The position numbers and the translations under genes were made by a program. Below, in pieces: positions 3,052-34,241 of a stretch of DNA of 34,241 nt. The stretch lies in NCBI GenBank assembly GCA_000934665.2, contig KZ539071.1:1-34241 (forward strand). The letters run 5' to 3'. The stretch comes from Catajapyx aquilonaris. Lineage: Eukaryota. The stretch's first letter is position 1, and each line of letters opens with the position of its first letter. A model generated the notes under the pieces. The model saw only the letters and a list, made by a program, of their open reading frames with translations, was not told where the DNA came from and ran no database searches.

Positions 3052-3104
3052 ATGCTGCTTTGTTGCACTACAGTCTTTGTTGTTGTTTACACATTGATTT
3101 TTTT

Positions 3105-7927: not shown

Positions 7928-8019
7928 ATATCTTCTGGTATTTGTAGACTACCGTACTCCAAATGCGGAATATACGTAATGGCTTTTTAAATTAAATAAT
8001 CCAATGAATTTAAATCATA

Positions 8020-8155: not shown

Positions 8156-8702
8156 TTTAATTAAGATTCTTAATTACATGTAACACTCGCAAAAATCCGT
8201 ATCTTTCGCACCCCACGCGTCGCAGGGACAAAAAAGAGCCCCCTGCTGATATATCTGACCCGAAATTCACCCTTCTTGCCCACCTTGGCGTCCTTGACCT
8301 AACCACCCCTCCAAGACACGGGTCACTCAGCCAACCCATGACGACCCCCGTCCCTTCTATTCCCGCCAAACCCAGGGATTGTGACTAATCGTCTTGTGCA
8401 CAAGGTACAAGTCCCCCAAGTCCCTTATCTACTTGCCCCCCACGGTTTTACAAATGACNCCCCCATCCCGTGTGTGACCTACGCGGTCAAATACAACAAT
8501 CGTCAACAACCGGCTCAATGCCTCAAAACAATGAAACAGCATGCGCACAATTATTGACTCGATTTTAATTAGTCGGGCCGGTCTCATTAAAATCGACATT
8601 ATTTTCTACACCGCAAATAACTGGCTATGCGTTTGTCTCAATTACAATTAAACGATCATAAAAAAGTCACTATTCAGGTACCTTATACAAGTGTGTACTT
8701 AC

Positions 8703-8735
8703 CTCAGCGTGGGTTTCGTCCATGGTGACGTCCAT
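8703..8735 (-). CDS. Candidate alternative distal first coding exon of Fos copy 1 (MDVTMDETHAE)
   Basis: gccatcATGG context, 33 nt, strong donor GAG|gtaagt, phase 0 compatible with the acceptor at 7492. CCAAT box ~200 nt upstream. Near-identical to 18689-18721. Confidence 0.55.
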
Positions 8736-9366
8736 GATGGCGGGACCTGAGGGCGTTGATGAAGAAGACAATGGTCGGGCACTGAAGAGGGACTGGCCAA
8801 GACGACTTCTCAGGTGGGGAAGAGGCAGAACAATGGACAAGAAGGGTCCTAACTGCCCAAATTAGCGGCGGAATCCGCCCACTTTCTCCCAACCGGAGGA
8901 CCTCTTTGGTTCAAGGACGCGGGTCACTTCGGGTCAGCCAATAGGAACTGGCCTTCCCATCGTCACAAGACCAGCAGTGTGTGTGTCGCAGTCTTCGGCG
9001 CCTGAAATCTGCCTGCATTCTTGACGACTATGAAAAATAGAACAATAGAGCCATATTGTTACTAGTCGAAAATATGACTACGAAAATTTTGAGCACTTAT
9101 TAGTTATTACATACGCAGGTTTACTATTGAGATAGTGACACTGTAATTAATTCGTACATATTTTAAATTTAAAGTAATGTTACACTCAAGAGGGGGCATA
9201 TTGTTACAGTGTACCTGTCCCCGCTAAAAAGTTTTGTTGCAATTATCATTCAGTATTAGTTACAAAAATTTTAATATCGTAATTAGGGAGTGTGTCAATG
9301 TCAACAATGTAGGTGTTCATTGACTTTAAAACATAATTACAAGCCCAGGGAAGCCTAATTACACTA

Positions 9367-9778
9367 CATTGTGCTCTTGATTATCCGGGCTAGTAATGAC
9401 TGCACGGGTGTTGCCGGATAATCGGAAATGGCCATAGAAACCGTAAAAAATGAGCTATCCACAGGTTAGAGATTACCCTGCTTGGTTTAAGCAAAATAAT
9501 AAAACTTATAATATATTTTTTTTACTTTATCTTCTTTAAAAAAAAGCGTTATATTTCTTCGGCGGCGAGACATATTGACAGTGGCGCTAATTTTTGTCCA
9601 CTGCTAGTTACTGATAAGTTAGCAGTAGCAGTGGGACAAATAATTCGACACATTTTTTCGGGCTTTAATTTTAAATATTATTTTTAACTAGTCGTCGCTG
9701 GCTACCCCATTTCTGGGATTATGCCGTGTGTATCTATATGACCGGATAATCCGCACCCGGATAATCGGGCATACAGTG
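9367..9778. mobile_element. Tc1/mariner (pogo-like) MITE
   Basis: Imperfect ~23-bp TIRs cattgtgctcttgattatccggg and cccggataatcgggcatacagtg, flanked by TA on both sides. Partial inverted copy at ~18140-18330. Confidence 0.55.
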
Positions 9779-10120
9779 TATGTGAATACGACATGAAATG
9801 TATAGCGCAACTTTTTAAATAATATTTTAACAATGCTGTGATAAATTATTTCCAATGCAAAATATGGAAAAATATTCAAAGCCTTTTCCACCCTCCTAAC
9901 TTGGCCACCTAAATGGCACCAAGCTTTATCAGATAAGGGTTTCTTAGGACCAACCGCTAATGGCTTGACTAGCCGAAAGCAAAGGGGGACAAAATATGGT
10001 CAGCAGGTCATTCCGACGGGGCATGACCTTCCTTCCTTCCTGATAGCCTCAAGTGACATTCCCAGCCACCCCTGACTCCATTATGTCGCATGGTCAGTTT
10101 CAGAGGCTATTGTTTCAGAG

Positions 10121-10490
10121 GCTTCTGCGTGCCCAACGTTGGCGCGTATTACGTCTATACGTAATCGACTCTTACGTGTTCAACCCGAAACTCGACAGAG
10201 CCATACACTCATCAAGGTCACTCGCAATCGACAAAGTCGATTGACGTCAAAATGACGTCGCCAATGCCGACCAGGGCAGGAGGAGAATTGGCGACGTCAT
10301 TGTGTCGTCAATCGACATTGTCGATTGCGAGTGACCTTGGTGAGTATATGGCTCTTGGACTGCTGAATCGTGCGGGTAATGCTCGAGAATATCTGGTTCG
10401 AGATATTTTAGTAAGAAAAGCTTTATCTGAAACTATTGTGTCGAAAGAAACACTTATGAAGGAAATCCGATTACGTGGTCCGCAACGTGG
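10121..10490 (+). pseudogene. Decayed fragment of the Dpy-30/Arg-rich gene (matches ~16437-16232 inverted), interrupted by a palindromic element
   Basis: Translates to LLRAQRWRVLRL... and LGLLNRAGNAREYLVRDILVRKALSETIVSKETLMKEIRLRGPQ. Carries a 2-nt frameshift and an insertion at 10197-10355, and has no 5' part. Confidence 0.85.
10197..10355. mobile_element. Fold-back (palindromic) MITE-like insertion carrying CRE motifs
   Basis: ~69-bp near-perfect arms 10197-10265 and 10287-10355. The empty site is visible in the intact gene (ctcaac^ttggact). TGACGTCA at 10242-10249. No clear TSD. Confidence 0.8.
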
Positions 10491-11140
10491 TGCGTAGAAT
10501 ATATTGCTGCCATTTCGGATCGATTCCTGTCCATTTTGCAGAAGTCATCGATATCTGACTTTCGGTTATAACAGAGTCGAATGGCCGGTCCTGAAAAACT
10601 TCCATAAGGCACTGTGTATTTTTTACTCCTGATATAACATACTCATTTTTACCTCACCTTGGCTATAATGGACCATTGCATTTGGTACCTCGGCGGCAAA
10701 ATGTGCTGTTTTTGACTATTATTCCACTTCCTTTCCCACGCAAGGAAGGCAGAGAATACTGGAATAAGGTGATTTTAGCATCCGTCACTGATTTAAGCTA
10801 ATCAATCAATTTTCTGGTATATTTGGCGACACGGAGACGATAGAAGAAAATTGCGGGAATTTTGTCCTCAATGATTTAAGGGTGAGCTAATTTTGCATTT
10901 TTGTGGTTTGTTTCATTAATCACTTTGCAGTAGTGTGCATTGTAGGCAAGTAGAAAACTTGTGTATTCGCTGCAAAATTGGCGAATAGGCTATGACAGAC
11001 TTCGGTTATAACATACTTGTAAATGTAAAAAAAATGTTTTATTGGCAAAATGATACAAAAGTGAAAATTGCTGAAAATCTTAATTACTATGCACATAATT
11101 ATTATATTGGCAGGTCCATAAGCACATTGTTGTACAATTG

Positions 11141-12146
11141 TTAATATGCTTCCAGTAGGGAGTCGAAATTGAAGAGGCCTTTTGATGGACTCTCGATGGG
11201 GATGCCAGCTATCTCTGCAGCCTGTGGAAATGACAACAATGAGTCGATTTGCAACAATTAGCCATTGTTGTCACTGCTTACTTACCAGAGAGATCAAGTC
11301 AGGTGTCTCCTTCTGAGGCGTGGTTGGTGGCAGTGGCCTCAAAGGTGCTTCCTCCATCTTGCGAGTTGTGGTGGCGACCTTGACCTCAACAGGCGGGCAT
11401 TGGGTCAGGTCAACAATGGGGTGGACAACAAGACGTTGCTGGTGTCTCTGAATAAGCTCGCAGTTGTGATGGTGCAAGATACGTTCCAAACACTGCTTCC
11501 TGTTTACCAACTGAAGGACATCAGCATCCAACCGTCTCTTCTTCTCCTCTTCTACTCTCACCTCCTGAAAAATTGACATGGGGGTCATGACCTATCAAGA
11601 CACAAAGATGATCATACTTACGTCAATAAGGGTCTGCATGTTATTAAGTTTCTTTTCCCAACATCTGGCTACTGCTTCACGGTTCATCAGGCGTTTTCTG
11701 GCCCTCTTGGTAGCCTGCTCAGGGGTCAGCTGAAATGACCTCAATGTAAGTAGGGGATGATGGACAATAATTGTTGTGGACATACCTGGTCATCATCATC
11801 TCTTGGCCTTCTTCCACCCCTTCTCTTCCGGTCATCCATGGGCATGGCTTCCGGGTAGTTGCTGGCTGAACTGCTGCTTCTGGAAGTGACCTCACTGCTG
11901 GTCATGGAGGTGCTGGAACTGGAGGATTCAACTTTGGACTCCATCAGGTGCTGTCCGGTCAGCTGGTCCGGTTGCTTCTGAGTTAATCCGAATATTTCTG
12001 CCAAGTTTTGCAGGGCAGTTGGGGTCAAATCAGAAGGCGATATCTCGAAATCCCATGGCAACTATAGAGGAGGTCAAAGGTCAGTGGAGGAATTTGGGAG
12101 GAATAGTAAAAAAATTATGTGGACTTACCGTAGGTGTAATATCCAT
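11141..12146 (-). CDS. Fos: Fos/kayak-family bZIP, copy 2 (~253 aa), basic region altered (NREAVARCW)
   Basis: Exons 12146-12129, 12061-11786, 11729-11622, 11564-11286, 11221-11141. Open frame with GT-AG introns. C-terminus AAEIAGIPIESPSKGLFNFDSLLEAY*. Confidence 0.85.
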
Positions 12147-13059
12147 GACCATCTCACACTGCACACTGTTCTCACTCAGGATGTCAGGACAAGAATGACC
12201 CGGTCGGGTCATATACCTTTTGGCCTCAGAATCACCTTCTGAGATAAAAACCAGGAATAACCATAACCTTTCGAAAACAAGAGTGTATGACTCCATGTCA
12301 TGCATATCCTAAGCCCCTGTAGACCGTGGGAAAGACTTGCAGCCCATTCTTGGCTCTATGGTATATGTGTACAGGGGACCCCCAGGCTGAGTCATATTTC
12401 TGGTTTTATCCATTAGTCAATATCTTCTGGTATTTGTACTCCAAATGCGGAAGAGACTTTTGAAAATGGGCATCACATTTCAATTGCGATATATGTAAAA
12501 TTTATTTACGTGCAGAATAATGAATAACTATTCAAAAGCAAGGTCATGCTCTTCATGCCTTTCAGGCCAATCACAGGCCGACCTGCACCACATGACCCAT
12601 CACAGAACCACCCTGACAACATGCTCCTATATTATGAACCCAAAAGTTTCACTGAACACAATACTGTAAATTTATTATGCGGTATGACTTTTTAAAGCAA
12701 ATTTATTTGCAAGATTTTGTTGCCAATTCAGGTGACTACATTTACGGGTATATGCGTTTGGCGCACAAAATGCTTTTATATCTGGCTAATATGGAAAATT
12801 GCCTCACTATATTTTGCGAAAATCTCACGCCATGTAAAAATTACTACCTGTTATTTTGTAACTTGTTCCACCCCTAACTTGGCCACCTAAATGGCACCAA
12901 GCTTTATCAGATAAGGGCTTCTTAGGACCAGCCGCTAATGGCTTGACAAGCCGAAAACGATAATAATATACGTAAATGGTCAGCAGGTCATTCCGACGGC
13001 GCCCTTCCCAATGACCTCAGTCCCCCTTCCTTCCTGATAGCCTCACGTGGCATTCCAGC

Positions 13060-13175: not shown

Positions 13176-13311
13176 CGGTTATAACATACTTGCAAATGTA
13201 AAAAAATGTTTTATTGGCAAAATGATACAAAAGTGATAATTGCTGAAAATCTTAATTATTACTATGCACATATTATATTGGCAGGTCCATAAGCACATTG
13301 TTGTACAATTG

Positions 13312-14315
13312 TTAACATGCTTCCAGTAGGGAGTCGAAAGTGAAGAGGCCTTTTGATGGACTCTCGATGGGGATGCCAGCTATCTCTGCAGCCTGTGGAA
13401 ATGACAACAATGAGTCGATTTGCAACAATTAGCCATTGTTGTCACTGCTTACTTACCAGAGAGATCAAGTCAGGTCTCTCCTTCTGAGGCGTGGTTGGTG
13501 GCAGTGGCCTCAAAGGTGCTTCCTCCATCTTGCGAGTTGTGGTGGCGACCTTGACCTCAACAGGTGGGCATTGGGTCAGGTCAACAATGGGGTGGACAAC
13601 AAGACGTTGCTGGTGTATCCGAATAAGCTCGCAGTTGTGATGGTGCAAAATACGTTCCAAACACTGCTTCCTGTTTACCAACTGAAGGACATCAGCATCC
13701 AGCCGCCTCTTCTTCTCCTCTTCTACTCTCACCTCCTGAAAAATTGACATGGGGGTCATGACCTAGCTAGACACAAAGATGCCCATACTTACGTCAATAA
13801 GGGTCAGCATGCTATGAAGCTTCTTGTCCCTACATCTGGCTGCTGCTTCACGGTTCATCAGGCGTTTTCTGGCCCTCTTGGTAGCTTGCTCAGGGGTCAG
13901 CTGAAATGACCTCAATGTAAGTGGGGGATGATGGACAATTGTTGTGAACATACCTGGTCATCATCATCTCTGGGCCTTCTTCCACCCCTTCTCCTCCGGC
14001 CATCCACGGACGTGGCTTCCGGGTAGTTGCTGGCTGAACTGCTGCTTCTGGAAGTGACCTCACTGCTGGTCACGGAGGTGCTGGAACTGGAGGATTCAAC
14101 TTTGGACTCCATCCGGTGCTGTCCGGTCAGCTGGACAGGATCCGGTTGCTCAGTTAATCCGAATATTTCAGCCAGGTTTTGCAGGGCAGTTGGGGTCAAA
14201 TCAGATGGCGATATCTCGAAATCCCATGGCAACTAGAGGAGGTCAAAGGTCAGTGGAGGAATTTGGGAGGAACAGTAAAAAAATTATGTGGACTTACCTT
14301 AGGTGTACTATCCAT
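13312..14315 (-). CDS. Fos: Fos/kayak-family bZIP, copy 3 (~254 aa)
   Basis: Exons 14315-14298, 14232-13954, 13900-13793, 13735-13457, 13392-13312. Basic region KRARKRLMNREAAARCRDKK intact. C-terminus ...GLFTFDSLLEAC*. Confidence 0.85.
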
Positions 14316-14840
14316 GGCCATCTCACACTGCACACTGTTCTCACTCAGGATGTCAGGGCAAGAATGACCAGGTCGGGTCATACCTTGGCCTTAGAACCAG
14401 TCATACATCACCTTCCGGGATAATCATAACCTTTCAAAAACAAGAGTGTATGACTCATTGTCATGCATATCTTAAGCCCCTGCAGACCGTGGGAAAGACT
14501 TCAGCACACTCTTGGCTCTGTGGTATGTGTATAGGGGACCCCTATAGGCTGTGAGTCATATGTCTGGTTTTATCCATTAGTCAATATCTTCTGGTATTTG
14601 TACTCCAAATACGGAAGAGACTTTTGAAAATTGGCACATTTCAATTGCGAATTTGCGATATTTTATTTACGATAGTAATTATGAACTCAAAAGTTTCACT
14701 GAGCGTGTATTTATAGGTTTTGAAATTTTTTTAAAAAATGACAATTCAACAGTATGCTTAAACACCAACAATAATGGTCACCAGGCTGAACAATCATTCC
14801 TCAACGTTCATGGATTTTGCTGGCCATTGCTGAATCTTCT

Positions 14841-15569: not shown

Positions 15570-16841
15570 TTATTGAGATTTCTTAGACATTTTTCGATGG
15601 CCTTTAGAATGCTTTCTATTCATTACAGTTGTTCTGACATAATCACCAAAGCTCCTATGAAGATAATTCCTGGCTCCAGTACCATGAGATGGATCTTCTA
15701 CAAATCGAATTGTTTTCCGACGAGGACTATCCTCAACAACTTCACACACACCGTCCTTACATTCAAGACTATCATGCTGGCCATTATCTTTTGATTGATC
15801 CTTCTGTTCAATGCTCACTTCAGCAAGTTCAGACATTCCAGATTGATCCTGTTGTTCAGTAGCTTTTTGATCAGTTCCTTCTAGAGATAGCTTATGTGGA
15901 GAACTACTTTGAGCAGCAGATGGTGATTCTCTAGAACTATAAGTTTCTGCAGTATGCGGCCGCCGATAAGTCTGACATTTTGGCGATTCAAACTTTTCAG
16001 GCAGATTTTCTCGCGGTACTTTTTGTGATAGAATTTCTCGCGGAACTTTTTCTGATAGAGTTTCTCGCGGAACTTTTTGAGATAGAACACCTCGTAATCG
16101 AACATCTCGTGATTGTGTTATAGGAAATAGAGCATCTCGAAATCTGACACCTCGAGAGAGACTTGTGTGAAACAGGGTTTCTCTCAAGCGAGTCACATGA
16201 GAGGGATCCAATTGAGATAGAGCTTGACGATATTGAGGACCACGTGATCGGATTTCCTTCATTAGTGTTTCTTTCGACTCAATAGTTTCAGATAATGCTT
16301 TTCTTACTAAAATATCTCGAATCAGATTTTCTCGAGCATTACCAGCACGATTCAGTAGTCCAAGTTGAGTTTCGGGTTGAATACGTAAGAGTCGATTTCG
16401 TAGACGTAATACGCGCCAACGTTGAGCACGCAGAAGTATACGTCGTTGTTGAGCATGACGTTGTCGAGAACGTAAGCTTCGAACTTTCGAGGCCTTTGGA
16501 CGTTCTGTATCATCTTTTGTCTTAGCCCGTCGCAGTTTAGCACGTCTTTTCCGATTACGCTTCCTTCTGGCACGTCGTTGTCTGTCACGTCGGCGTCGGC
16601 GTCGAGCACACTGCCATGCTGTGCGCATCAGATGACTTCGAAGTTTTCGGTTGTAATGTGGGGGAGGGTACGTGCGATTTTCATGCTCGTACTCCGAGCT
16701 GACCTTCAGGAGCATGCAGAAGAGGTGGTACATCGGGTCCGGGGGTCGAACCCTGTCCAATGAAGTGACCGCAACCAGAAGCCCAGGGGCTATTTTGCGG
16801 TTTATGTAACACCTGAAAGACGAGGTGTTGATGGGATTCAT
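15570..16841 (-). CDS. Dpy-30 (D/D)-motif protein with protamine-like Arg-rich region and peptide repeats, 423 aa
   Basis: N-terminal RCYINRKIAPGLLVAVTSLDRVRPPDPMYHLFCMLLK aligns by eye to the Dpy-30 motif [37 protein letters not shown]. Followed by CARRRRRRDRQRRARRKRNRKRR and 9-aa repeats LS(Q/E)KVPRE. AATAAA lies just after the stop. Confidence 0.75.
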   Translation of the reverse strand: MNPINTSSFRCYINRKIAPGLLVAVTSLDRVRPPDPMYHLFCMLLKVSSEYEHENRTYPPPHYNRKLRSHLMRTAWQCARRRRRRDRQRRARRKRNRKRRAKLRRAKTKDDTERPKASKVRSLRSRQRHAQQRRILLRAQRWRVLRLRNRLLRIQPETQLGLLNRAGNARENLIRDILVRKALSETIESKETLMKEIRSRGPQYRQALSQLDPSHVTRLRETLFHTSLSRGVRFRDALFPITQSRDVRLRGVLSQKVPRETLSEKVPREILSQKVPRENLPEKFESPKCQTYRRPHTAETYSSRESPSAAQSSSPHKLSLEGTDQKATEQQDQSGMSELAEVSIEQKDQSKDNGQHDSLECKDGVCEVVEDSPRRKTIRFVEDPSHGTGARNYLHRSFGDYVRTTVMNRKHSKGHRKMSKKSQ

Positions 16842-16908
16842 CTCTTCCTTAATCTGTGGGTCAAATGATTAATACTTTTTAATTAAATATGAATTTTTTA
16901 ATGAGCTC

Positions 16909-20989: not shown

Positions 20990-21490
20990 TCGAATATTGC
21001 TGTCATTTCGGATAGATTCCTTCCAATTTTGCAGGTCATCGGCATCAGACATTCGGTTATAACAGACTCGAATGGCCTGTCCTGGGAAACTTCCATAAGG
21101 CGATGTGTATTTTTACTCCCGATATAACATACTCATTTTTACCTCACCTTGGCCATAACGGACCATTTTTTGGTACCTCGGTGGGAAAATATGCTGTTTT
21201 TGACTATTCCATTTCCTTTCCCAAGCAAGGAAGGCAGAGAATACTAGTAATGTGATTATAACATCCGTCACTGATCTAAGCTACGCAAAACCACCCCTTT
21301 TCTGGTATATTTGCGACGCGGAGACGACAGAAATGGAAGGCCCGTTCTCATTGGCTGACCCGAAGTAATCAATGTCCCCCAACCAGAAAGGTCCTCCAGT
21401 TGGGAGAAAGTGATGGGTGGAGTCCACTGCTAATAATTTGGGCAGGTAGAACTTGGGTAGGACCCTCTTTCCCATTGTCCTGCCTCTTCC
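20990..21490. repeat. Direct duplicate of ~10495-10850 followed by a decayed third copy of the Fos distal promoter (~18465-18610)
   Basis: Shared ttcggttataacaga.tcgaatggcc...acatactcatttttacctcaccttggc; then attggctgacccgaagt...ggtcctcc.gttgggagaaagtg. Confidence 0.8.
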
Positions 21491-21808
21491 CTTGCCTGGT
21501 TCACTCAAGTTATACCTACAGATATAGAGTCTTCCCTTTGTATGTACGTATATAAGCAGCCCCAAAAATAAATTCATTGGTCAGGCCCTGGAAGGTTCCT
21601 GGACAGTTCCTGGAAGTGAATTTTATCATATAAAAATTACATTAAAATGTTTTCAGAAAAACCTTTAATTATGCATTTCCTATACTCACTATTGAGTTTT
21701 CAAATGTCACTTTTTGTAGGTGCATTTTTCTTTTGTGAGTATAGTCCACATAACAAGATATTCCCCAGCATGGTTAAAAGCTGTTCTTGAGTCTCCAGGT
21801 TGCAGCAG

Positions 21809-23951
21809 TTATTGGCACTGGAAACCTGGAATTGCAGGCCATATTTGGTTGGGCTCACAGATGGAGTAAGCATAGGGGAATCCAGTGGTGCTCTGGTAAG
21901 GAGTCTTGCACTGGTACATGGCCATGGTGCCCTCCACATGCAGAACGTCACTGCATTGCACTTCTGTCCCACTCGGTTTGTAGCATCTCACCTCTTGGTT
22001 CTCGGACAACGGAGGAGCCTCACAAGTGACCACATACTCAACTGACAAAAAAGTGCAGTAATGGAAGGCGTATATGGTTTAGAAGAGAAAGTTAACCAAC
22101 AATACTTAACTTACCTCCACGTCTTTTACACACCGATGCATACAATATGTATTTTGATGCGCTTCTCACAGTCATTCGACCTCCACTAGCTATGGTCAAG
22201 AACGCAAAGTGGTAAAACCCTCGCCTTCTTTGAGGATGGCCTTCAGACCATTTTCTACAGTAGAGGAATTTTGTATTTACAGATTATTCATACTGTTCAT
22301 TAGTAATGGATTGTACTTGCAGAAATGTGGAGTTAGTTGGAACAGTGCGTCCATCTGTCCACTCCCAGACTCCATCCCGGTCCGTGTCTGACAGACCAAT
22401 CCAGTAAAGGTCATCTATGAAGTTTTTCGTAACATATTCCAACCATTCCTGTAATCGATCAGACTTGGTGCACATAGTTTCACCTATACTGTATAAGGTA
22501 TAGTCCCAAACAATACCATTTCTGCAGGTGAATTGATGGAAATTAAGTATCCGTCCTCTCGCTTGCAAAATGCGTTCGCGTCGTCCCATGACATGTAAAA
22601 TATTTTCAGAGCCAACAAGTAGCAGCTTGAAGAACCGCGTCTCGGATACCAATGGTCTGGACAATTCCCATTGGCTCCGTTTCCATTCTCTGAAACACAT
22701 TACCTAGACTGAATGAATTTGAATTCACCGCGGTTTTCTGAGAGAAATATAAGTACACACAGAAAAATTGCCGCGTCAGGTGACACGCTATGGTAGTCAG
22801 GTGACGATATCCAGTTTGACTCGCCAAGCAGAGTCAGGTTCACTCTCCAAACAAGTCGCCTGACACCTCAGGGGAGTCAAAGGACACCCCAGAGGAGTCA
22901 AATTACTCACCTTTTTAAAGGTGAGTAATTTGACTCCTCTGGGGTGTCCTTTGACTCGCCAGGATGGTCGAGAGACTCCCCAGGGTCATCAGTAGACCCG
23001 CCAGGATAGTCAGAGCAGTTCTAATCGGGGAGGGGTGGTCCTTTGACTCCCCTGAGGTGTCAGGCGACTTGTTTGGAGAGTGAACTGACTCTGCTTGGCG
23101 AGTCAATCTGGATATCGTCACCTGACTACCATAGCGTGTCACCTGACGCGGCCATTTTTCTGTGTGATATGTAACTCTAAAGTACCTTTCTCGCATACAA
23201 ATTGCCAGATTTCCTTACAACCGTGGTCAATAAACCTGTGGTATTCCCCGCTACTTGATAACACGCAGTCTTCGCTGTAGATTCCTTTGTGTAGGTGGTC
23301 AATGTCCCAGGTTCTGTAATAGAATAGGGTTGTAGAATTTTTTTTTACAGCAAGTTCACGGGTACTTGCGTACAGAGATGTGTCATTGTTATAATCATTG
23401 CCATCCACATCCACCCACTTCCATTGGTAGGTTCCGTCGTTGGAAGATGCTTCAGTTGCTCTCAGTCCAATCCACCACCTTCCTACAACCGTAGCCCCTA
23501 ATACTTTGCGACTAATTCTTGAAGCTATCCACTCCTGAATTTAGGACATGGTTAGCATAATAATTATGATCATGTACCAAAAGACTGAACACCACGGGGT
23601 CTCCTCACCAATTCTTTCTCCGAGTTGATAACCAGAAGGTCTGATTTATGATTTTGGCATGATTCACGTGCTTCTTGCCATGTCAGTGCTTCATCCTGAA
23701 GCAGATAGCAGTAAGGCTCGTCCGGAGGAGAGATCCAATTATGGGGACATTTAGTAGCTGAAGGTTGTGATTTTAGGACATCAGGCATGATATATCAGTG
23801 TTCAAAGAAAGTGACTGACGAACAGCCAAAATGGTCAACACCCCCAGAAACTGAACGATGATAAAATTTTATTATTATTGCATAACTTACTGTCTGCAGA
23901 AATACAGGTTATGAAGAGGAAAATGCAACAGAACAATCCACTTGAATCCAT
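21809..23951 (-). CDS. Secreted 2xC-type-lectin-domain + Sushi/CCP-like protein, subtype A (CTL1, ~390 aa)
   Basis: Exons 23951-23891 (MDSSGLFCCIFLFITCISAD), 23757-23609, 23534-23374, 23313-23186, 22689-22517, 22448-22321, 22254-22115, 22041-21809. CP..W...CY and WIGL motifs occur twice. C-terminal CEAPP..C..C..EGTMAMYQC..PY..C....W......C. One GC-AG intron. Confidence 0.9.
22756..23166. mobile_element. Long-TIR fold-back MITE (CAC...GTG termini; CACTA/EnSpm-like) in CTL1 intron 4
   Basis: ~130-bp inverted arms starting cacacagaaaaa (22756) and ending tttttctgtgtg (23166). Nested perfect 41-bp palindrome 22874-22914 / 22917-22957. Absent from the homologous introns of CTL3 and CTL4. Confidence 0.85.
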
Positions 23952-24339
23952 TGCATACCAAAGTTACTTGTAAGCACGTATGCTGCGCCAGGATGTACAG
24001 CGATAGGGCGACCACATCAGGAAAAGACAATATTCGTTCCTGCCTGTCCCAAGCTACAACTATGAGGTAATGATAAGCAAATGTGAAGTTCCTTTGAAGT
24101 TCCTGCTGGAAGTGAATTTTATCATATTAAAAATTACATTAAAATATTTTCAGGAAAACCTTTATCTATGCATTTCCTATACTCACTATTGAGTTTTCAA
24201 ATGTCACTCTTTGTAGTGCATTTTCTTTTGTGAGTCACCCAAATAATAAGATATTCCCCGCCACACACATCCTGAATGTCTGATAACATCACTCGACATG
24301 CAACCAGTCTGGGCTAATACTCATTACCAGCAGCACCTT

Positions 24340-26459
24340 ATGTACTACTTTGCACTCATCTTTCTGGCTCATGGTACGGTCAGAGGAAATACTTCTGCCA
24401 ATATAAAATTTTTTATAATCAGTATGTTCAATGAAACAATGATCTCCCCTTTACTGTAGGCGCCTTGGCTGCCCGATGTCCTGGAGTCTGGATATCTCCT
24501 CCAGACGAAACCTCTTGCTACTTGCTCCAGGGTGAGTACTATACTTGGCAGGAATCTCGCGACTTGTGCCGAGAGAAGGGCGGTGATCTGCTGGTGGTGA
24601 ACTCTGATAAGGAATGGGTAGGCTTAATATTCCACAAAAATGCTTACAACAATGGAAGTACTAACAAAATCCAATGAGCAGGATTGGATAGCTTCAAAGG
24701 TGTACGACAACGTCCTGGAGTATGACGTGATCTGGTCCATTGGACTGAGAGCAGTGTACGAGAAGACATCTCAAGGTGTCGGAGGATACAAGTGGAAATG
24801 GATAGACGGAAGGGAATTTGAAAGCTCTCCATCACTGTATGTATCCACAGGCAACTTATGGGTTCATACGACAAGACAGTGTCGTTGTTTTTGCTGTTGG
24901 GTGGTTGCAGTTGTGTGCCACCAAATCAAATCGTGCACCATGCTTCCTACTCTAATCCTACACATGATAGCACCATATACTGACAGATCCTGTTCGTAAT
25001 AAAAATCTTCAAATAATTCACTTGCATGCCGTTTAATGTGCCCACTAATTAACTTGAATTATTCCAGGAAGTGGGCTCTTGGTGAACCTTCAGGAGAATA
25101 TTTCGCCGATCATTGTGGTATTGTGATGATTTTGTACAACAACATCCTGGCTCTAAATACAGAGTGTATTATCGGTTGGCACTCTGTATGTGAAAAAGAA
25201 AAGGGTGACTTTTTCATTTATTAGTTACATTCTAATTTAGATTAGGTGTAATTTGTGCAATGCACGTCTCTTTAAATAGGTATTATTTTCTATTTTTTTT
25301 CAGAGATACACGACTCATGTCCTGAGAATTGGTTGAACAGAGAAGGCTCCACAAGTTGTTATTACCTGGACACCCTTCATCAGGCAACATGGTTTGAAGC
25401 CAGGGAGAAATGCAAAGCTAGTGGAGGGGATTTGGTGTCGATCAATTCACATGAAGAGAAGGTATGCTTAATTAAAACCCTTCGAAGTCAATTGGAAGCA
25501 CCCAATTCCAATGTTATGATTAAGGAACGGATTTTTATGTTCTAAAAATTTTTTATACTAGATTATAATAGACTGTAACGCTTTCCTGTAACGCTAGGGT
25601 TTGCCTGCATACCCCCGCCATGGGCCCCTGGCAGGACCCCCTGGCAGGACCCCCTGGCAGGACCTTGCTGTAACGCTTTTCTGCAACGCTCGAGTTTGCC
25701 CGCATGCCCCCTGATCCGATTTTAAATCCGATTTAGAAATCCGTTCTGTAGTAGTTACGATGAACTGAGAAATTCCGTTGCTAACAATAGCCACACTTTT
25801 CGCTTCAGGAGTGGCTGAGAGAGGAATTGAGATATTACATCATTTTGGCTTATTGGATCGGCCTCTCCAAGAACAACATAACCAAAGAGTGGGAATGGAC
25901 TGATGGAACCAGTCATGACTCAAGCATCTTGTAACTATCTGGCCTTCTGTTGCAGATATTCATGTATGATTATCCACACTAATCATTTCTGTTGCAGGCA
26001 ATGGGCTCAAGATTTCCCGACAAAAGGAAACAATTATCCAACATCATTAGAAGGGCCTGCACACTTTGCTTCATATGCACCAACCATTCATGCCCTTACC
26101 ACCTTTCCACATTACTTCAGACTCCCTTCAGTGTGTGAAATACCAGGAGGTGTGTTGATGATGTAGTGGTTTACAATCAGTGAAGTCATCACCAACGTGT
26201 ACTTGTCTCAGTCCCCTACAGGATTGCTTGTGAGGCCCCTCCTCCTCCTCCGATGGAAGAGATGGAGATGAGTTGCCATGCCCCGAGTGGAAGGGAGGTG
26301 CAGTGCCACGATGTGCGGCACTCGGAGGGTACCATGGCCGTGTACAGGTGCAGGGAACCCTTCCAGAGCACCACTGGCCTCCCTCTGGCCTATTCAGTCT
26401 GCGACCAAGATCAGAACTGGCCTGCACTTCCTAGCTTCCAATGCGTTCTTCCTGTATAA
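24340..26459 (+). CDS. Secreted 2xCTLD + Sushi/CCP-like protein, subtype B (CTL2, ~387 aa)
   Basis: Exons 24340-24373 (MYYFALIFLAH; in-frame upstream ATG at 24298), 24460-24617, 24682-24836, 25068-25204, 25304-25461, 25809-25930, 25998-26149, 26212-26459. EPS motif in CTLD1. All introns GT-AG. Confidence 0.9.
25573..25711. repeat. Composite repeat insertion in CTL2 intron 5
   Basis: Two ~43-bp direct repeats (ctgtaacgcttt.ctg.aacgct...gtttgcc.gcat.cccc) flank three copies of ccctggcaggacc. The homologous intron in CTL3 and CTL5 is only 66-82 nt. Confidence 0.7.
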
Positions 26460-26689
26460 TCACGTTTGATGGGGACATAATATATTATTTAATTCGGTCA
26501 CCAGTGCATGTAACCACTCCTTGTGTCATCTAAAACTATTAAAGGAAAAACTTGATATCCAGAAGAATTGACAGCATTATTGCGTTGTAATTCTACTTAT
26601 ACAAACTGTATATTGTGTATACAGTGTATGAATAAATATTGCTGATATAGTGAGTAGAATGTGCAACACCGTGCGACGTAGCGATAGTG

Positions 26690-26990
26690 CCATTCGGGGT
26701 CATTCATCGTGGTCCCACGTCCAGATATGTTTATATGTGTCCAAAGAACTAGTGTACCGAGTTTCACGTCTTTATCACCGAATTCAAGCTCCCAATTCAC
26801 ATGGTCTAAGCAGAGAGGTATGTTGGGTCCGTTATATCTGGCAACCCTTCGAGTGACCCACAGCGGGGTCAGTCATCATGGCCCCACGTTCAGAAATGAT
26901 CAGAAGTGCCCAAAGAACAAGTGTACCGAGTTTCTTACTTTAGTCACAAAATGCAAAGTCTGGGCCAAATTGTCCCTTAGCACATGGATA
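26690..26990. repeat. Imperfect ~80-bp direct repeat, possibly a non-autonomous Helentron-type element
   Basis: cggggtca.tcatc.tgg.cccacgt.caga.atg....a.gtg.ccaaagaac.agtgtaccgagtttc at ~26695 and ~26864. Family assignment is a resemblance only. Confidence 0.45.
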
Positions 26991-27574
26991 TTGTGGACAC
27001 CTGTATATGCACATACACAGATTTACACAAGGTCTACTTTTAGATGCCGATGACCTTAAAGGGGTGGCCAATAGAAGATTGCAATGGACGCTTATGCTGG
27101 TAGGGTAGAGGACATCAATTGCATATACATTCAATGAGCTTATCATGTTTTCGATTTATGAATGTCATTGTCAAGATTGTTTTTAATGCGAATAACAATA
27201 GAATAACCATTGCATTGTCCCATTTTTGGAGGCAATTTGATAATGAAAGTATTGGATTGATACGTTCAATACCTATTGTTCCTTATGTTGTCCTCGATGT
27301 GACAGTAAATAATGATTGCATTGTATATGACACGTACTTTAAATGTTAAAATTTGATATCGGGTTTTAAAAATTTATTATAAATATTCGACATAGCATTC
27401 AATGCCTCTACACTACTTGTGACCTCATCAAGCTGTTAGGCACTTCACTATGACTTCAGTCGCGGAGTACGAAGGACTTCATAAGTAACTAATCCCTCAC
27501 TAGAACCTCAGGCCGCAGCCTACGTACGTCTTACAGGTGTGATAATTACCTGTCACAAATAACTTGAGTTTGCC

Positions 27575-30500
27575 ATGGCTTCATCTGATGGATTGTACCA
27601 TTGCATTTTGCTCGTCATTTTCTCAATTTATTCAGACAGTAAGTTGTGTGAAATAACTTGTCTTTCAATGGCTGTTGAGCTCCACCACCACGTTTCACAC
27701 ATGCCATACCTGCTGTAATATTCCAATCCTCAGCTGCAAGATGTCCACAGAGCTGGATATCTCCTCCGAAGGAGCCTTACTGCTGCTATCTGCTCGAGGA
27801 ACGAAGATTGACATGGCAAGAAGCACGTGAATCGTGCCAAATGCAAGGAGGAGATCTTCTGGTTGTCGACTCGGAGAAAGAATTGGTAAGGAGACCCTTC
27901 TACTGCAGCATGTACATGATACTAATAATATCTGCTAAACGCAGGGGTGGATATCTATAATGATCAGTCGCAAAGTCCAACGAATATGGCATGCAACATG
28001 GTGGTGGGTTGGGTTGAGATCAACTGAAGAATCCTCCAACAATGGAAATTTCCAATGGAAATGGGTGGATGGTCCTGATTATGACACCTACTCATCACTG
28101 CAAGTACACTACAAGTGAACCTTCCCACAACATCTTTTAAATACTAACCGATTATCTCAGACCATGGGCCAGTGGACATCCATACAAAGGTCTCTACAGC
28201 GAAGACTGTGTGTTATCTCGTAGCACAAAAACCCACATATTTTTTGATCAAGATTGTACAAGCATGTCCCATTTTATTTGCGAGACAGGTATAGCGTAAC
28301 TTGATTTTGTTTTACAAGGGGTGAGATCAAATAAATCAGGTGAATGTAATTGCAGAGAACGAAACCACAAGCAGACGTGGATGTCCAAACTTCTGGCTTT
28401 CGAGACGTGGTTCCTCAAGCTGCTACCTGTTGGATGCGAGGGTGACTAAATCATGGAAGGAGGCTAACAAGTTTTGTAAGGAAAATGGCGGATATTTAAT
28501 ATCAATCAATTCACCTGCAGAAGAGGTATTGCTCATAGACTGTAGGCGAAACAAGGTGTGTCAGTTCTGCTTGTTTCTAGGCATGGTTGAAAGATGTTAC
28601 GAATACCCCAACAGGTAGAGCTTATTGGATTGGTCTGTCAGACTTTGATCGGGATGGAATCTGGGAATGGACGGATGGTCGCACTGTAGCAACTAACTCT
28701 ACATTCTTGCAAGTAACTTATATAGCAATCTATCTGAACAGGAATAATTGTTTTTGCTAATCTCTCTGACTGTAGAAAATGGCCTGAAGAATATCCACTC
28801 AGAAGGCAAGGGGTTTACAAATTTGCATACTGGACATATAATGATGCTGAAAGTGATCTGATGAGCGACTCGGAATACGGACGTCATGGATCAGTTTGTA
28901 AAAGGCGTGGAGGTAAGTTATTTGCTTTCTCTATACACAGTATTGTTCATGAGCACAATTGTTTGTAGCCTCCAGGGCTGCCCGATGTCCTTCATACTGG
29001 ATATCCCCTCCAGACGAAACCTCTTGCTACTTGCTCCAGGATGAGGACAATACTTGGCAGGGATCTCGCGTCTCTTGCCAAGAGAAGGGCGGTGATCTGC
29101 TGGTGGTGAACTCGGATAAGGAATGGGTAACAGTCTCTTACTTCACATGATCACAATAGTGTAATAACACAACCCACTGAGCAGGATTGGATATCTTCAA
29201 AGTTGTATCCCTCCTACAACGGAATTCCAGTGGCCTGGTTCATTGGACTGAGAGCAGTGTACAAAGAGACATCACCTGGTGCTGGAAGATACACCTGGAA
29301 ATGGATAGACGGAAGGGATTTTCAAAGCTCTCACTCACTGTATGTATTCACAAACTTCCAAAACTTTTAACATGTTTTTACAGCTTAAAGTCCGGTACCA
29401 TCAAAGACTAAGATAATCAGCATCTCTTGTCCCATGCAGTACCCAACACTGATTAACGTGAATTATTTCAGGAAGTGGGCTAATGGCGAACCTTCAGATA
29501 AAATTTACTCACCAATTAACCACGATTATTGTGGTTTGGCAATATTTAACAGCAACTTCACTGGGACTATTAATTATGTGTGTCTTCTGCCATGGCCCTC
29601 TGTATGCGAAAAAGGAAAAGGTAGGTTTTTACCAATTAATACCTTTTTAATTTAAATTAGGGGTAATTTGTGCCAAAAATGCCTCTCCTGTGATTATAAG
29701 GACATTATGGCAGTATAATTATGCATCACCTCTCCTACTAGGGCATTTTGTTTTGCAGATGGAGGACAAGATGAATGTCCTGAGTATTGGCTGGATAGAA
29801 AAGGTTCCACAAGCTGTTACTACGTCAACACCTTGAAGAAAACGTGGTTAGAAGCCAGAGAGAAATGCAAAGATAGCGGAGGAGATTTGGTGTCAGTCAA
29901 TTCAAACGAAGAGAAGGTAATCAAAGTTAAATCAAGACTTCCAAGGAAATACTGCTAGCAATGGCCATACATTCATTTGCAGGAGTGGCTGATAAAGGCA
30001 ATGGGATATTCCGGCATTACAGTTTTTTGGATCGGCCTCATCAAGAATAGCCCAACAGAAGAGTGGAAATGGACTGATGGAACCAGTCACCACTCGAGCA
30101 TCTTGTAACAAACTGCCAGTTCATCGCGATACACGATTATTGGCCACACTAATATTATTTCTGTTGCAGTGAATGGCACAAAAGTTACCCGGAGGTACTA
30201 GACGCTCCGTTACACTTTGCGATGTACGCACCAAACATTCATGCTATTTCCACCTTGCCATATTACTCCGGGGAGTATTCAGTGTGTGAAATAACAGGAG
30301 GTGTGTTGATGATGTAGTAGTTTACAAAGAAGTCATCACCAACGTGCACTTGTCTCCAGTCCCCTACAGGATAGCTTGTGAGGCCCCTCCTCCTCCTCCG
30401 ATGGAAGAGATGGAGATGAGTTGCCATGACCCGAGTGGAAGGGAGGTGCAGTGCCACGATGTGCGGCACTCGGAGGGTACCATGGCCGTGTACAGGTGCA

Positions 30501-30610
30501 GGGAACCATATCAGAGCACCACCGGAATTCCTCTGGCCTATTCAGTCTGCGACCATGATCATAAATGGCCTACATTCCCTGCCTTCCAGTGTGTCCTTCC
30601 AGTCGAATAG
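27575..30610 (+). CDS. Chimeric A::B lectin, signal peptide + 4 CTLD + Sushi/CCP-like (CTL3, ~685 aa)
   Basis: 14 exons: 27575-27638, 27734-27885, 27945-28099, 28161-28288, 28356-28525, 28581-28708, 28776-28912, 28969-29126, 29185-29339, 29472-29620, 29759-29916, 29983-30104, 30170-30300, 30360-30610. 2058 nt with no stop or frameshift; two GC-AG introns. Confidence 0.85.
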
Positions 30611-30793
30611 TCACGTCTGATGATGGGAGCATAATTTTGGTACGGTCACCATTTCTGGTGTCATGTAAAACGAAGAACTTGAAATACAGGAAAATAGGCA
30701 ACAACCAGCATTTATTGCATTGTATCCTACGTATGCTGTACATTGTAAGAATAAATACTGCTGACAGAGTGGGTAATATAATTCCTTGTCATT

Positions 30794-32502
30794 TCAGGTA
30801 GATTCCTCTCCAGGTTGCAGCAGTAATTGGCACTGGAAACCTGGAATAGCAGGCCACTTCTGATTGGGCTCACACATGGAGTAAGCATAAGGGAAGCCAG
30901 TGGTGCTCTGGTAAGGAGGCTTGCACTGGTACATGGCCATGGTGCCCTCCATATGCAGCACATCACTGCATTGCACTTCGGTCCCACTCAGTTTGTAGCA
31001 TCTCACCTCTTGGTTCTCGTGCAACGGAGGAGCCTCACAGGTGACCACATATTCAACTGACAAGAAAGTGGAATTATTAAAGGCCTGGGGTTTAGAGAAA
31101 GCAATTCAACCACTTACCTCCACGCCTTTTACAGACCGATCCATAAAGTCCGTATTGCGATTGGCTCATCAGATCACTTTCATCATCATTATAGGTCCAG
31201 TAGGCAAAGTTGTAAAATCCTTGCCTTCTGCGAGGATATCCATCAGGCCATTTTCTACAGTCATGGAGATTAGCAAAAAACTTGTCTTCCTGTTCAGATA
31301 GATTGTTATATATGTTACTTGCAGGAATGTAGAGTTAGTTGGAACAGTGCGACCATCCGTCCATTCCCAGATACCATCACGGTCAAAGTCTGACAGACCA
31401 ATCCAATAAAACCCACCTATTGGGGTTTTCGTAACAGCTTTCAACCATGCCTAGAAACAAGCAGATTTTGTACACCTTGTTTGGCATATAATCTATATGA
31501 GTAGGGGGATAATACCTCTTCTGCAGGTGAATTGATTGATATTAAATATCCGTCCTTTTCCTTGCAAAATTCGTTAGCTTCTGGCCATGACTTAGTCACC
31601 CTCGCATCCAACAGGTAGCAGCTTGAAGAACCGCGTCTCGAAAGCCAGAAGTTCGGACATCCACGTCTGCTTGTGGTTTCTTTCTCTGCAATTACTTGCA
31701 CCTGATTTATTTGATCTCACCCTAGTTTTGTAAAACAAAATCAAGTTACTTTATACCTGTCTCGCAAATAAAATGGAATGTGCTCGTACAATCTTGATCA
31801 AAAAATATGTGGGTTATTGTGCTACGAGATAACACGCAGTCTTCGCTGTAAAGTCCTTTGTATGGATGTCCACTGGCCCATGGTCTGAAATGATGGGTTA
31901 GAATTTTTAGCAAGTGTTGGGGAAGGTTCACTTGTAGTGTACTTGCAGTGATGAGTAGGTGTCATAATCAGTGCCATCCACCCATTTCCATTGGAAGTTT
32001 CCATTGTTGGAGGATCCTTCAGTCGCTCTTCTCAACCCAACCCACCACCATGTGGCATACCATCTTCGTTGGACATTGCGACTGATTGTTGTAGATATCC
32101 ACTCCTGCGTTTAGCAGATGATAGTATGTGAGCATGTACATGTAGGAGAAATACCATCACAGGGGGTCTCCCTTCTCCCTACCAATTCTTTCTCCGAGTT
32201 GACAACCAGAAGATCTCCTCCCTGCATTTGGCATGATTGACGTGCTTCTTGCCATGTCAGTCTTTGTTCCTCGAACAGGTAGCAGTAATGCTCGTCCGGA
32301 GGAGATATCCAACTACGGGGTCATCTTGCAGCTGAATATTAGAATATTAAGACAGCAAACATTGCATCTGAATAAATGTGACATGAGAGGAGTGCGGAAC
32401 TCAACAAATAATTGAAAGACAAGTTATTTCACACAACTTACTGTATGAAGAAATTGAGAAAATGACGAGCAAAATGCAGTGGTACAATCCAGATGAAGCC
32501 AT
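30794..32502 (-). pseudogene. Subtype A lectin (CTL4), intact except one in-frame TGA at a conserved Cys codon (32323-32321)
   Basis: Exons 32502-32442, 32331-32183, 32104-31947, 31884-31757, 31685-31516, 31450-31323, 31254-31118, 31056-30794. GCA AGA TGA CCC versus GCA AGA TGT CCA in CTL3. All other codons and splice sites are intact. Confidence 0.75.
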
Positions 32503-32690
32503 GGCAAACTAAGTTATTTGTGATAGGTTATTATCAGGCTGGTAACACGTAGCGGTGTACGTAAAATTCTCTTTTCCACTTAGAGTTGTCCACAGAGTGA
32601 GTTATTTCCTGCCACACACATCCTGCATACCTGATAACAATTGACGACATTCAATCAGTCTTGGCTCATGCTCGCTACCAGAAGGACCCT

Positions 32691-34241
32691 ATGAACTACT
32701 TTGCACTCATCCTTCTTGTGCATGGTAAGGTCAAATTAATTTCGTCTGCTGTGATCGTTATACTTGAATATCAGTCAATGAGCAGAATTGTTTGTAGTTG
32801 CATTTGCAGCACGATGTCCTGCCGACTGGATATCCCCTCCAGACGAAACATCTTGCTACATGCTCCAAGATGAGTACTATACTTGGCAGGAATCTCGCGA
32901 CTTGTGCCAAGAGAAGGGCGGTGATCTGCTGGTGGTGAACTCTGAAGAAGAATGGGTAACAATCTCTTACTGCACAAAAATGCTTACAACAATGGAACTA
33001 TGGAAGTACTAACAAAATCAATTGGGCAGGATTGGATATCTTCAAAGTTGTACCCCTTCGTCTACGGAATAGATGTGGCTTGGTACATTGGACTGAGAGC
33101 AGTGTACGAAGAGACATCACCTGGTGCTGGAAGATACACCTGGAAATGGATAGACGGAAGGGATTTTCAAAGCTCTGACTCACTGTATGTATTCACAAAC
33201 TTCCAAATCATTTAACACGTTTTTACATGTAAAGTCCGGTACCATCAAAGACTAGATAATCAGCATCTCTTGTCCCATGCAGTACAAAAAGCACACTGAT
33301 TAATGTGAATTATTTCAGGAAGTGGGCTAATGGCGAACCTTCAGAGGAAATTTACTCACCAATTAACGACGATTATTGCAGTTTGGCAATATTTACTAGC
33401 AACTTCACTGGAGCTATTAATTATGTTTGTCGTCTGCCGTGGCCCTCTGTATGCGAAAAAGGAAAAGGTAACTTTTTACCCATTCATATACCATTTCAAT
33501 TTAGATTAGGGGTAATTTGTCCTCATGAATGTCTCGCCTAGCTATTAGGACATAAGGACTATCCTTTAGGTGTTTAGGAGATTATAATTATTATGCATCT
33601 CCTCCTATACTAGGACATTTTGTTTTGCAGAGGGAGGTCCTGAGTATTGGCTGGATAGAGAAGGTTCCACAAGCAGTTACTACGTCAACACCTTCAAGAC
33701 AACGTGGTTTGAAGCCAGAGAGAAATGCAAAGCAAGCGGAGGAGATTTGGTGTCGGTTAATTCACAGGAAGAGAAGGTAATCAATGTTAAATCAAGGCTT
33801 CCAAGGAAATACTGCACTTGCTAGCTATGTCCATACATCGCCATACATTCACTTGCAGGAGTGGCTGATAGAGGCAGTGGGACGTTATTACAGCATTACC
33901 GTTTTTTGGATCGGCCTCTTCAAAACCAACCAAACAGAAGAGTGGAAATGGACTGATGGAACCATTCACGACTCGAGCATCTTGTAACAAACTGCCAGTT
34001 CATCACGATACATGGTTATTGGCTACACTAATGATTTCTGTTGCAGTGAATGGCACACAGGTTTCCCGGCTGTACGAGAAGAAGCTTATATACACTTTGC
34101 GATATACGCACCAAACATTCAAGCTATTTCCACCTTGCCATATTACGCCGGAGAGTATTCCGTGTGTGAAATACCAGGATGTGTGTTGAAGTAGTGGTTT
34201 ACAATGAAGTCATCACCAACGTGTACTTGTTTCAGTCCCTT
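32691..34241 (+). CDS. Subtype B lectin (CTL5); last (Sushi) exon truncated by the window end
   Basis: Exons 32691-32724, 32798-32955, 33030-33184, 33319-33467, 33631-33776, 33859-33983, 34047-34180 and 34236 onward. Open frame. Confidence 0.85.

Follow-up and report, generated by a model that had tools for sequence, protein, structure and literature searches.

A cluster of secreted-type proteins with two C-type lectin domains and a C-terminal CCP module in Catajapyx aquilonaris, encoded in divergent gene pairs and a derived fusion gene

We examined a window of 34,241 nucleotides (nt) of the Catajapyx aquilonaris genome (assembly GCA_000934665.2, contig KZ539071.1, positions 1 to 34,241) and found at 21809-34241 five paralogous genes, here called G1 to G5, that belong to two subtypes (A and B) and are predicted to encode small proteins of secreted type. 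A six-frame reading of 21000-34241 showed animal-like DNA with short introns, and both strands carry exon-sized open pieces with the landmarks of C-type lectin domains (CTLDs), namely CP..W, WIGL, W.W.DG and a C-terminal.CE[KT]. Within the window, these landmarks are confined to the right-hand third. It appears that the five genes represent a lineage-specific tandem cluster of secreted proteins, each built from two CTLDs and one complement control protein (CCP, or Sushi) module with an extra disulfide, that the genes were laid out as divergent A/B pairs before an A gene and a B gene were fused, and that the proteins share a role in soluble recognition. We would give this reading as a whole a probability of roughly 0.6.

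The gene models were chained by hand from fragments of open reading frames, using GT-AG splice sites, reading phase and agreement among the paralogs. G1 is an intact type A gene of eight exons on the minus strand (23951-21809; exons 23951-23891, 23757-23609, 23534-23374, 23313-23186, 22689-22517, 22448-22321, 22254-22115 and 22041-21809) that encodes 390 amino acids. G2 is of type B, also intact and with eight exons, and lies on the plus strand (24340-26459; exons 24340-24373, 24460-24617, 24682-24836, 25068-25204, 25304-25461, 25809-25930, 25998-26149 and 26212-26459), encoding 387 amino acids. G4 (type A, minus strand, 32502-30794) has 402 codons in eight exons, of which codon 24 is an in-frame TGA. 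G5 (type B, plus strand) starts at 32691 and runs past the end of the window at 34241; its exons 1-7 (299 codons) are open and its Sushi exon lies outside the window. G3 (plus strand, 27575-30610) is an A-B fusion of 690 amino acids, and all of its 14 exons are open.

In the eight-exon genes, a signal peptide is followed by two CTLDs and a C-terminal module with six cysteines. The intron phases (1,0,2,1,0,2,1) are common to every eight-exon gene, and G3 repeats the pattern twice. Because the phase pattern is identical, A and B are regarded as paralogs; their proteins are about 40% identical. The two CTLDs of each gene look like the outcome of an older internal duplication. An earlier annotation made from the sequence alone (the first-pass annotation) had proposed this eight-exon plan of signal peptide, two CTLDs and a Sushi-like module, and the models, the intron phases and the domain matches described below confirm it. 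The same annotation had seen two head-to-head pairs. The pairs G1/G2 and G4/G5 do exist, but the cluster holds five genes, with the fusion gene G3 between the pairs.

Comparisons between paralogs support the exon-intron structures. In four such comparisons, all insertions and deletions (indels) in exons were multiples of three (0/3, 0/4, 0/5 and 0/6 off-frame), while 9/10, 8/10, 13/15 and 11/15 of those in introns were off-frame, and indels per kb were 5-7 times denser in introns than in exons. The coding signal of the predicted genes is far above chance. Aligned to the tandem CTLDs of proteins with the Lectin_C domain (PF00059), the spliced models gave independent E-values (iE) of 1e-19 to 1e-26. 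Residues 21-298 of G1 formed an unbroken alignment over both CTLDs to the tandem CTLDs of multi-CTLD proteins (iE 6e-21), and residues 16-262 of G2 aligned to the tandem CTLDs of such proteins as well. The splice sites are canonical apart from one conserved GC-AG intron between exons 6 and 7, whose GCAAGT donor (28709, plus strand; 31322 and 22320, minus strand) is needed for an open frame in all three A-type copies. The intron at the same position in the B genes is of the GT-AG type, after a 4-nt difference.

Each CTLD is spread over three exons, and Pfam was scanned with single exon pieces. Of the 12 CTLD exons of G1 and G2 that were scanned, seven matched Lectin_C. One scored above the cut-off (24.3 vs. 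22.6 bits) and the rest reached 19.2-22.4 bits, with partial matches in both genes falling on exons 2, 5 and 6. All 120 proteins listed by a profile search with exon 6 contain PF00059, and giant multi-CTLD proteins dominate among them. The Sushi family (PF00084) was found in 0 of these 120, in a search that favours proteins with many CTLDs and is no proof that the architecture is missing elsewhere. The first-pass annotation had suggested a check against the Lectin_C profile, and the exon-piece matches and the alignments of the spliced models together establish the CTLD identity. A W[IV]GL string is present in all 12 CTLDs of the five genes. CTLD1 has six cysteines (the long form) in most copies; G3 has seven, and in G4 the first cysteine codon is TGA. 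CTLD2 retains C0, C0', C1 and C4 and is missing the C2-C3 pair, and the CTLD2 of G5 also lacks the C0 pair. In exon 5 of G5 (33631-33776), which encodes this additional N-terminal disulfide, one cysteine was removed by a 12-nt deletion and the other is replaced by serine. The joint loss of both cysteines fits a protein that may still be working.

The C-terminal module is, to judge from its cysteine pattern and a predicted structure, a CCP with one extra disulfide. It is encoded by a single Sushi exon, located at 26212-26459 (plus strand) in G2, 21809-22041 (minus) in G1, 30360-30610 (plus) in G3 and 30794-31056 (minus) in G4. With the Pfam Sushi profile (PF00084, cut-off 20.7 bits), the B-type exons scored 19.8 bits (G2) and 19.3 bits, and of the A-type exons one scored 14.5 bits and one gave no match; the matches cover profile positions 7-56 of 56. 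Four of the six cysteines, together with Y.C and W...P.C, conform to the CCP pattern, and the two extra cysteines are located in the first third of the module. The module thus shares the four consensus cysteines, both of these motifs and the fold with known CCP/Sushi domains such as factor H CCP1-2, beta2-glycoprotein I, CD46, MASP and C1s, but it differs from typical members in having six cysteines and in scoring just under the Pfam cut-off. The four copies are identical at 42 positions, among them those of EGTMA, Y.C, P.QSTTG.P.AYS.C and the six cysteines; C6, C46, C63, C77 and W69 are the same in 4/4. The motif EGTMA.Y.C..P.QSTTG.P.AYS.C that the first-pass annotation had reported as conserved is present within these positions.

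Profile and structure comparisons point in the same direction. When the four copies were used as a profile against the PDB, factor H CCPs occupied the top five of five rows (E 4.5e-4 to 2.3e-3). AlphaFold2 gave a mean confidence (pLDDT) of 46.5 for the Sushi exon as a single sequence, which is unusable, and 71.4 with the four-sequence alignment. VIA-align matched this model to beta2-glycoprotein I (Z 7.2), CD46 (Z 6.6) and factor H (Z 6.3), the best match being 6v09_A with a root-mean-square deviation (rmsd) of 2.5 A over 66 aligned residues. The CCPs of MASP, C1s and MAP-1 (Z 5.5-6.2) and CD93, a protein with a CTLD and a Sushi-like domain (PDB 8a59), were also among the matches. Z scores under 8 are middling, and the argument depends instead on the uniformity of the list: the 50 VIA-align rows listed are all apparently CCP- or Sushi-type chains, one of which (2yra) is titled otherwise. 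Foldseek found nothing at E <= 0.001 with the same model, and nearly all rows listed were CCP proteins. In a feature search of the ESM Atlas, 22 of 30 matches belonged to the Sushi set. The first-pass annotation had held that its reading would fail if the module were not CCP-like; the near-cut-off Pfam scores, the factor H matches and the uniform fold matches indicate that it is CCP-like.

Close relatives of the module were not recovered by sequence searches. A word-indexed search of longer proteins with the Sushi exon produced three candidates, none of them significant, and the four-copy Sushi alignment produced no candidate among proteins of near length. A phmmer search with the Sushi exon against 1.84 billion representatives found no credible relative, in a library of a size at which an 81-residue query needs about 36 bits and relatives below about 40% identity would escape. 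Four phmmer matches did reach E <= 0.001, but all are repetitive proteins without a lectin or Sushi family and were treated as spurious. The first-pass annotation had also noted the absence of a transmembrane segment and of a protease domain, in agreement with our scans. Kyte-Doolittle means of internal 19-residue windows stay below 1.6, with a maximum of 1.47, and apart from the signal-like stretch at the N-terminus no segment is transmembrane-like. All six frames of the window are free of GDSGGP, TAAHC and similar trypsin-type motifs, and every Sushi exon ends in a stop codon 0-12 codons past its last cysteine.

The two parts of these proteins have changed at very different rates. Nonsynonymous (dN) and synonymous (dS) divergence and their ratio (omega) were obtained by Nei-Gojobori counts. 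Within a subtype, the Sushi exon has a dN of 0.045-0.060 and an omega of 0.19-0.26, compared to a dN of 0.23-0.28 and an omega of 0.44-1.17 for the CTLDs of the same gene pairs; when the older pairs are counted exon by exon, the Sushi values are 0.04-0.05 and 0.16-0.20; at the protein level the Sushi module has evolved about five times more slowly. This agrees with the statement of the first-pass annotation that the CTLDs vary and the C-terminal module is conserved. Amino-acid identity between Sushi exons is 57-59% when A is compared with B and 89-92% when the comparison stays within a subtype, and by this measure A and B each retain a distinct CCP. The third exon of each CTLD (exons 4 and 7) is the least conserved, with 44-53% identity and a dN of 0.32-0.45 in the older pairs. 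In canonical CTLDs, this region is the long-loop region. The sample is too small for separating relaxed from positive selection. Omega values above 1 for single exons (1.92 and 1.16 for exons 2 and 3 of G2 vs. the B half of G3, G3b) come from about 50 codons each and are unrepeated in other pairs, and we did not take them as a sign of positive selection. The fast-changing C-terminal third of each CTLD could provide varied binding surfaces, and the slow-changing CCP could serve as a constant docking piece for another protein.

The divergent layout appears to have a single origin. The spacer between the start codons measures 388 nt in G1/G2 (23952-24339) and 188 nt in G4/G5 (32503-32690), close to the values of about 390 and 190 nt in the first-pass annotation. 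The B-proximal 89 nt of the two spacers (24249-24337 and 32600-32688) are homologous, with 77.5% identity, and both share a GATA-like motif, CTGATAACA, in this part. An Inr-like TCAGTC occurs at 32655, in the G4/G5 spacer only of the two copies. The G1/G2 spacer is the longer one because it contains a 158-nt repeat (24106-24259) that recurs in the same orientation just past the G1 stop codon (21610-21766, 90.5% identity). Since the spacers are homologous, the head-to-head layout arose once and was then inherited. The first-pass annotation had described a divergent arrangement occurring twice; the layout is indeed seen twice, but its two occurrences are not independent evidence.

The duplication history of the two subtypes is symmetric. 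Among the type A sequences, the closest are the A half of G3 (G3a) and G4, at 86% identity, with G1 at 58-66% to both; among those of type B, G3b and G5 share 80% identity, and G2 reaches 65-68% with either. G1 and G2 are therefore the respective outgroups, and because the A and B trees are symmetric, A and B must have been copied together. Synonymous sites are saturated between A and B, and dS is about 0.4 at the split of G1/G2 from G4/G5. On these comparisons, G1/G2 and G4/G5 are copies of one ancestral pair. The ancestor would have been a divergent A/B pair around a spacer of about 190 nt, most likely a shared two-way promoter, and this pair would then have been copied as a unit. The G4/G5 spacer is likely to be a bidirectional promoter, and with so short a spacer in common, A and B are likely to be transcribed jointly.

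The fusion gene G3 encodes, in order, a signal peptide, CTLD1 and CTLD2 of type A, CTLD1 and CTLD2 of type B and a B-type Sushi module, and lacks the A Sushi exon and the B signal exon. Its junction intron (28913-28968, plus strand, 56 nt) is chimeric. In local alignments, the 5' portion of about 25 nt resembles the last intron of the A genes (G4 intron 7) and the 3' portion of about 31 nt resembles the first intron of the B genes (intron 1 of G5 and G2), with 19 of the last 20 positions alike in G5 intron 1. The chimeric intron means that the fusion is derived, and the breakpoints, as placed by these alignments, are in two phase-1 introns, the last of A and the first of B. A later rearrangement between these introns would have yielded a single-chain protein with the frame kept. 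Residues 126-557 of G3, which span the fusion point, form an unbroken alignment to multi-CTLD proteins (iE 2.5e-26), and exon indels between the G3 halves and G4 and G5 are in-frame only. If the junction intron were retained, the A half would end 18 codons on and the B half would have neither a start codon nor a signal peptide. Contigs of three sequencing runs (X1-X3, presumed DNA from one sample) agree with the assembly at every position of 28501-29025. They may derive from the very sample that was assembled, and their agreement argues only against a scaffolding artefact.

We also considered a single inversion as the origin of G3. Its reciprocal product, a minus-strand B signal exon beside an A Sushi exon upstream of G3, was not found, and no fifth Sushi exon is present in the window. 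Upstream of the G3 start codon, homology to the G4/G5 spacer is limited to 50 nt, which are 84% identical to the A-proximal end of that spacer. Exon 2 of G3 (27734-27885) encodes PYCCYLL, with one cysteine more than G1 and G4 have there, so that the cysteine count of the mature fusion protein is odd and a free thiol is possible.

The in-frame TGA of G4 (32321-32323, minus strand) was confirmed by direct reading of both strands. It occupies the codon of the first CTLD cysteine, so that ARCP becomes AR-stop-P; G1 and G3 have TGT at this position. The remainder of G4 is open and, at 86% identity, has an omega of 0.31 relative to G3a. For this reason the TGA is, as far as the sequence can tell, recent, polymorphic or an error. 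None of the 40 read-contig differences inspected, out of 144, lies at the TGA. No SECIS element or other Rfam family was matched in the window, and selenocysteine at this position, a disulfide cysteine of a secreted lectin, is very unlikely. A 154-nt contig of a second study (X5) lies over the G4 Sushi exon with about 93% identity. G3 and G4 are arranged tail to tail with 183 nt between them (30611-30793); their AATAAA signals, at 30750 on the plus strand and 30716 on the minus strand, lie past each other, so the 3' untranslated regions would overlap.

Several observations weigh against the reading given at the outset. Two splice sites are uncertain. For exon 3 of G1 we chose the donor GTACGC, 13 nt upstream of the donor homologous to that of G4, because the latter would shift the frame; the exon is also open when read without splicing. 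For exon 4 of the B genes an alternative upstream acceptor exists in G3 and G5, and the one chosen is common to all three B copies. Splicing, the G3 fusion transcript and A/B co-expression are predictions from the DNA sequence, and the signal peptide was called by hydrophobicity alone. The canonical Ca2+/sugar motifs are mostly missing, which makes sugar binding doubtful. In a motif scan, WND was absent from every model and the EPN position was occupied, as EPS, only in B-type CTLD1; the EPN strings of G1 and G4 fall in the Sushi exon and not in a CTLD. The CTLD ligands may be proteins rather than sugars. Between G2 and G3, divergence is low in the Sushi exon and also unusually low in the intron before it, where 58 nt hold 3 mismatches; part of the B-type Sushi conservation may therefore be due to gene conversion rather than selection. 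Finally, with the premature stop of G4, one of the two pairs may already be half dead.

Our preferred view is that A and B are probably co-expressed and serve the same process as soluble recognition molecules outside the cell, without forming a covalent dimer. The derived fusion with its frame preserved and the co-duplication of A and B are hints of such cooperation, and the stop codon in G4, the A member of the second pair, speaks against obligate pairing. A complex prediction, limited to the A and B Sushi modules and with the alignments unused, gave a score of 0.01 with a mark of 0.34, which counts neither for nor against binding.

It is less probable, but a serious competitor, that there is no functional pairing at all. 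An old inverted duplication would have set the layout and segmental duplication copied it, the proteins would act alone or as homo-oligomers, and G3 would be a neutral or young chimera. The homology of the two spacers suits this explanation, as the layout arose once; A and B are also alike in architecture and may be redundant, one of the A genes is already defective, and orientation among five genes has no statistical weight. However, the layout and its very short spacer have outlived the split of G1/G2 from G4/G5 (dS of about 0.4), the CCPs are specific to each subtype (89-92% vs. 57-59% identity), and both halves of G3 have in-frame exon indels only.

At the other extreme, A and B may be made together and bind as a two-chain sensor with four CTLDs, of which G3 would be the single-chain form. 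The model for such an assembly is the mosquito heterodimer of CTL4 and CTLMA2, an analogy that the first-pass annotation had drawn. The divergent pairs with spacers of 188-388 nt, the duplication of A and B together and the derived fusion kept in frame, by Rosetta-stone logic, are all in keeping with it. The Anopheles CTL4 and CTLMA2 genes likewise lie back to back, on chromosome 2L, with near-identical tree topologies (10.1101/565705). Both systems thus comprise diverged lectin paralogs that are close, inversely oriented neighbours with mirror-image trees, and in both one partner lacks the sugar-binding residues. The analogy holds for the gene layout and the symmetric trees but fails at the level of the bond. 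CTL4 and CTLMA2 have one CTLD each and no CCP, and an N-terminal CXCXC/CXCPC disulfide motif is described as necessary for their dimer (PMC2719400). The CXC motif is absent from our models, in which the first CTLD cysteine directly follows the signal peptide (e.g. ..ARCP..W). Mature G1 and G2 contain 16 cysteines each, an even number fully explained by the disulfide patterns of the domains, and there is consequently no free cysteine for an interchain bond. Moreover, G5 is paired with an A gene that is interrupted by a stop codon, and neighbouring duplicates can fuse without prior interaction. On balance we consider the two-chain sensor improbable.

Least convincing is the idea, suggested by analogy with MAp44/MAP-1 and the MASPs, that these are protease-less relatives of lectin-lectin-CCP-serine-protease genes, acting as decoys or regulators: the module order would be identical up to the CCP and CCPs of MASP, C1s and MAP-1 are among the fold matches, but these match no better than other CCPs, none of the Sushi exons here is followed by a protease exon or motif, and each Sushi exon stops shortly after its last cysteine, so that we see little chance for it.

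The rest of the window contains other features. On the minus strand, 1485-4204 holds exons of an immunoglobulin-domain gene (three ORF pieces have Ig_3/I-set matches, down to E 4.6e-21). A unit of about 1.3 kb occurs three times in tandem, at 6529-7864, 11100-12362 and 13271-14525; it contains two minus-strand open frames of about 106 codons, one of them rich in Ser and Arg, with no convincing Pfam family. A 432-codon open frame at 15570-16868 (minus strand) is rich in Arg, Lys and Ser and has an N-terminal Dpy-30 motif (23.4 bits, cut-off 22). High-copy repeats lie at 25471-25889, in intron 5 of G2, and at 26728-27146, between G2 and G3, where the summed contig depth in the DNA runs is about 1,600-2,300 and 6,500-12,400, vs. 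20-170 in most other bins. The assembly has a gap at 5732-5823 (92 N) and a single N at 8459.

Among known lectins, the nearest comparison is with the insect C-type lectins, which have been grouped into CTL-S, IML and CTL-X classes (PMC7379682). In that survey, immulectins (IML) likewise have a signal peptide and two tandem CTLDs without a membrane anchor, and show lineage-specific tandem expansion and fast CTLDs. However, immulectins end after CTLD2, whereas in G1, G2 and G4 a CCP follows and G3 has four CTLDs, which sets these proteins apart from the IML class. A CCP after CTLD2 would therefore make them CTL-X in this scheme. The CTL-X proteins named in the survey form conserved orthologous groups, two with predicted transmembrane regions, in contrast to the expanded family of secreted type described here.

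Chimeric genes that arise by fusion of neighbouring duplicates are a further parallel, as in G3, too, the first part of one gene was linked to the last part of the gene beside it by way of phase-compatible introns. In G3, unlike in chimeric duplicates in general, both partners of a conserved divergent pair served as parents, so the fusion has some weight as a hint that they cooperate. Combinations of a CTLD with a CCP are found in the selectins, which have the order CTLD-EGF-CCP. Lecticans have the order EGF-CTLD-CCP (PMC514892). Like our proteins, both of these and CD93 are extracellular proteins in which a CCP-type module comes after a CTLD, but they are membrane proteins or large proteoglycans with one CTLD, unlike the soluble-type proteins of about 390 residues with two CTLDs here, and homology beyond the domains is not implied. 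ModSP and the MASP-type modular proteases have a trypsin-type domain after the CCP, and here there is none. A limited search of the literature, in sources available in part, found no description of a secreted signal peptide-CTLD-CTLD-CCP family. The component modules are textbook. New in this cluster are the pairing of A with B and the duplication of the two together, the gene that fuses them and the broken G4 copy.

In insects, lectins with two CTLDs are among the main soluble sensors of the immune system, and complement-type cascades use CCP modules as their usual means of docking. With both in one secreted CTLD-CTLD-CCP protein, dual-CTLD sensing would be joined to complement-type docking. 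A bolder proposal is that A and B form a unit of four CTLDs, with G3 as its single-chain form, and that the subtype-specific CCPs dock onto lectin-lectin-CCP-protease enzymes as adaptors or protease-less regulators. We think this a long shot; if true, the docking of an A+B unit on such proteases would amount to a home-grown lectin pathway in an early-branching arthropod lineage, made from CTLD and CCP modules only. If A and B act alone, the cluster would be one more lineage-specific lectin expansion with a neat fusion through compatible introns. To our knowledge, mosquito CTL4/CTLMA2 is the only invertebrate lectin pair so far shown to be a defined hetero-complex. The two old head-to-head subtypes, the pair copied as a unit and the natural single-chain fusion would provide handles for the study of such complexes in invertebrates.

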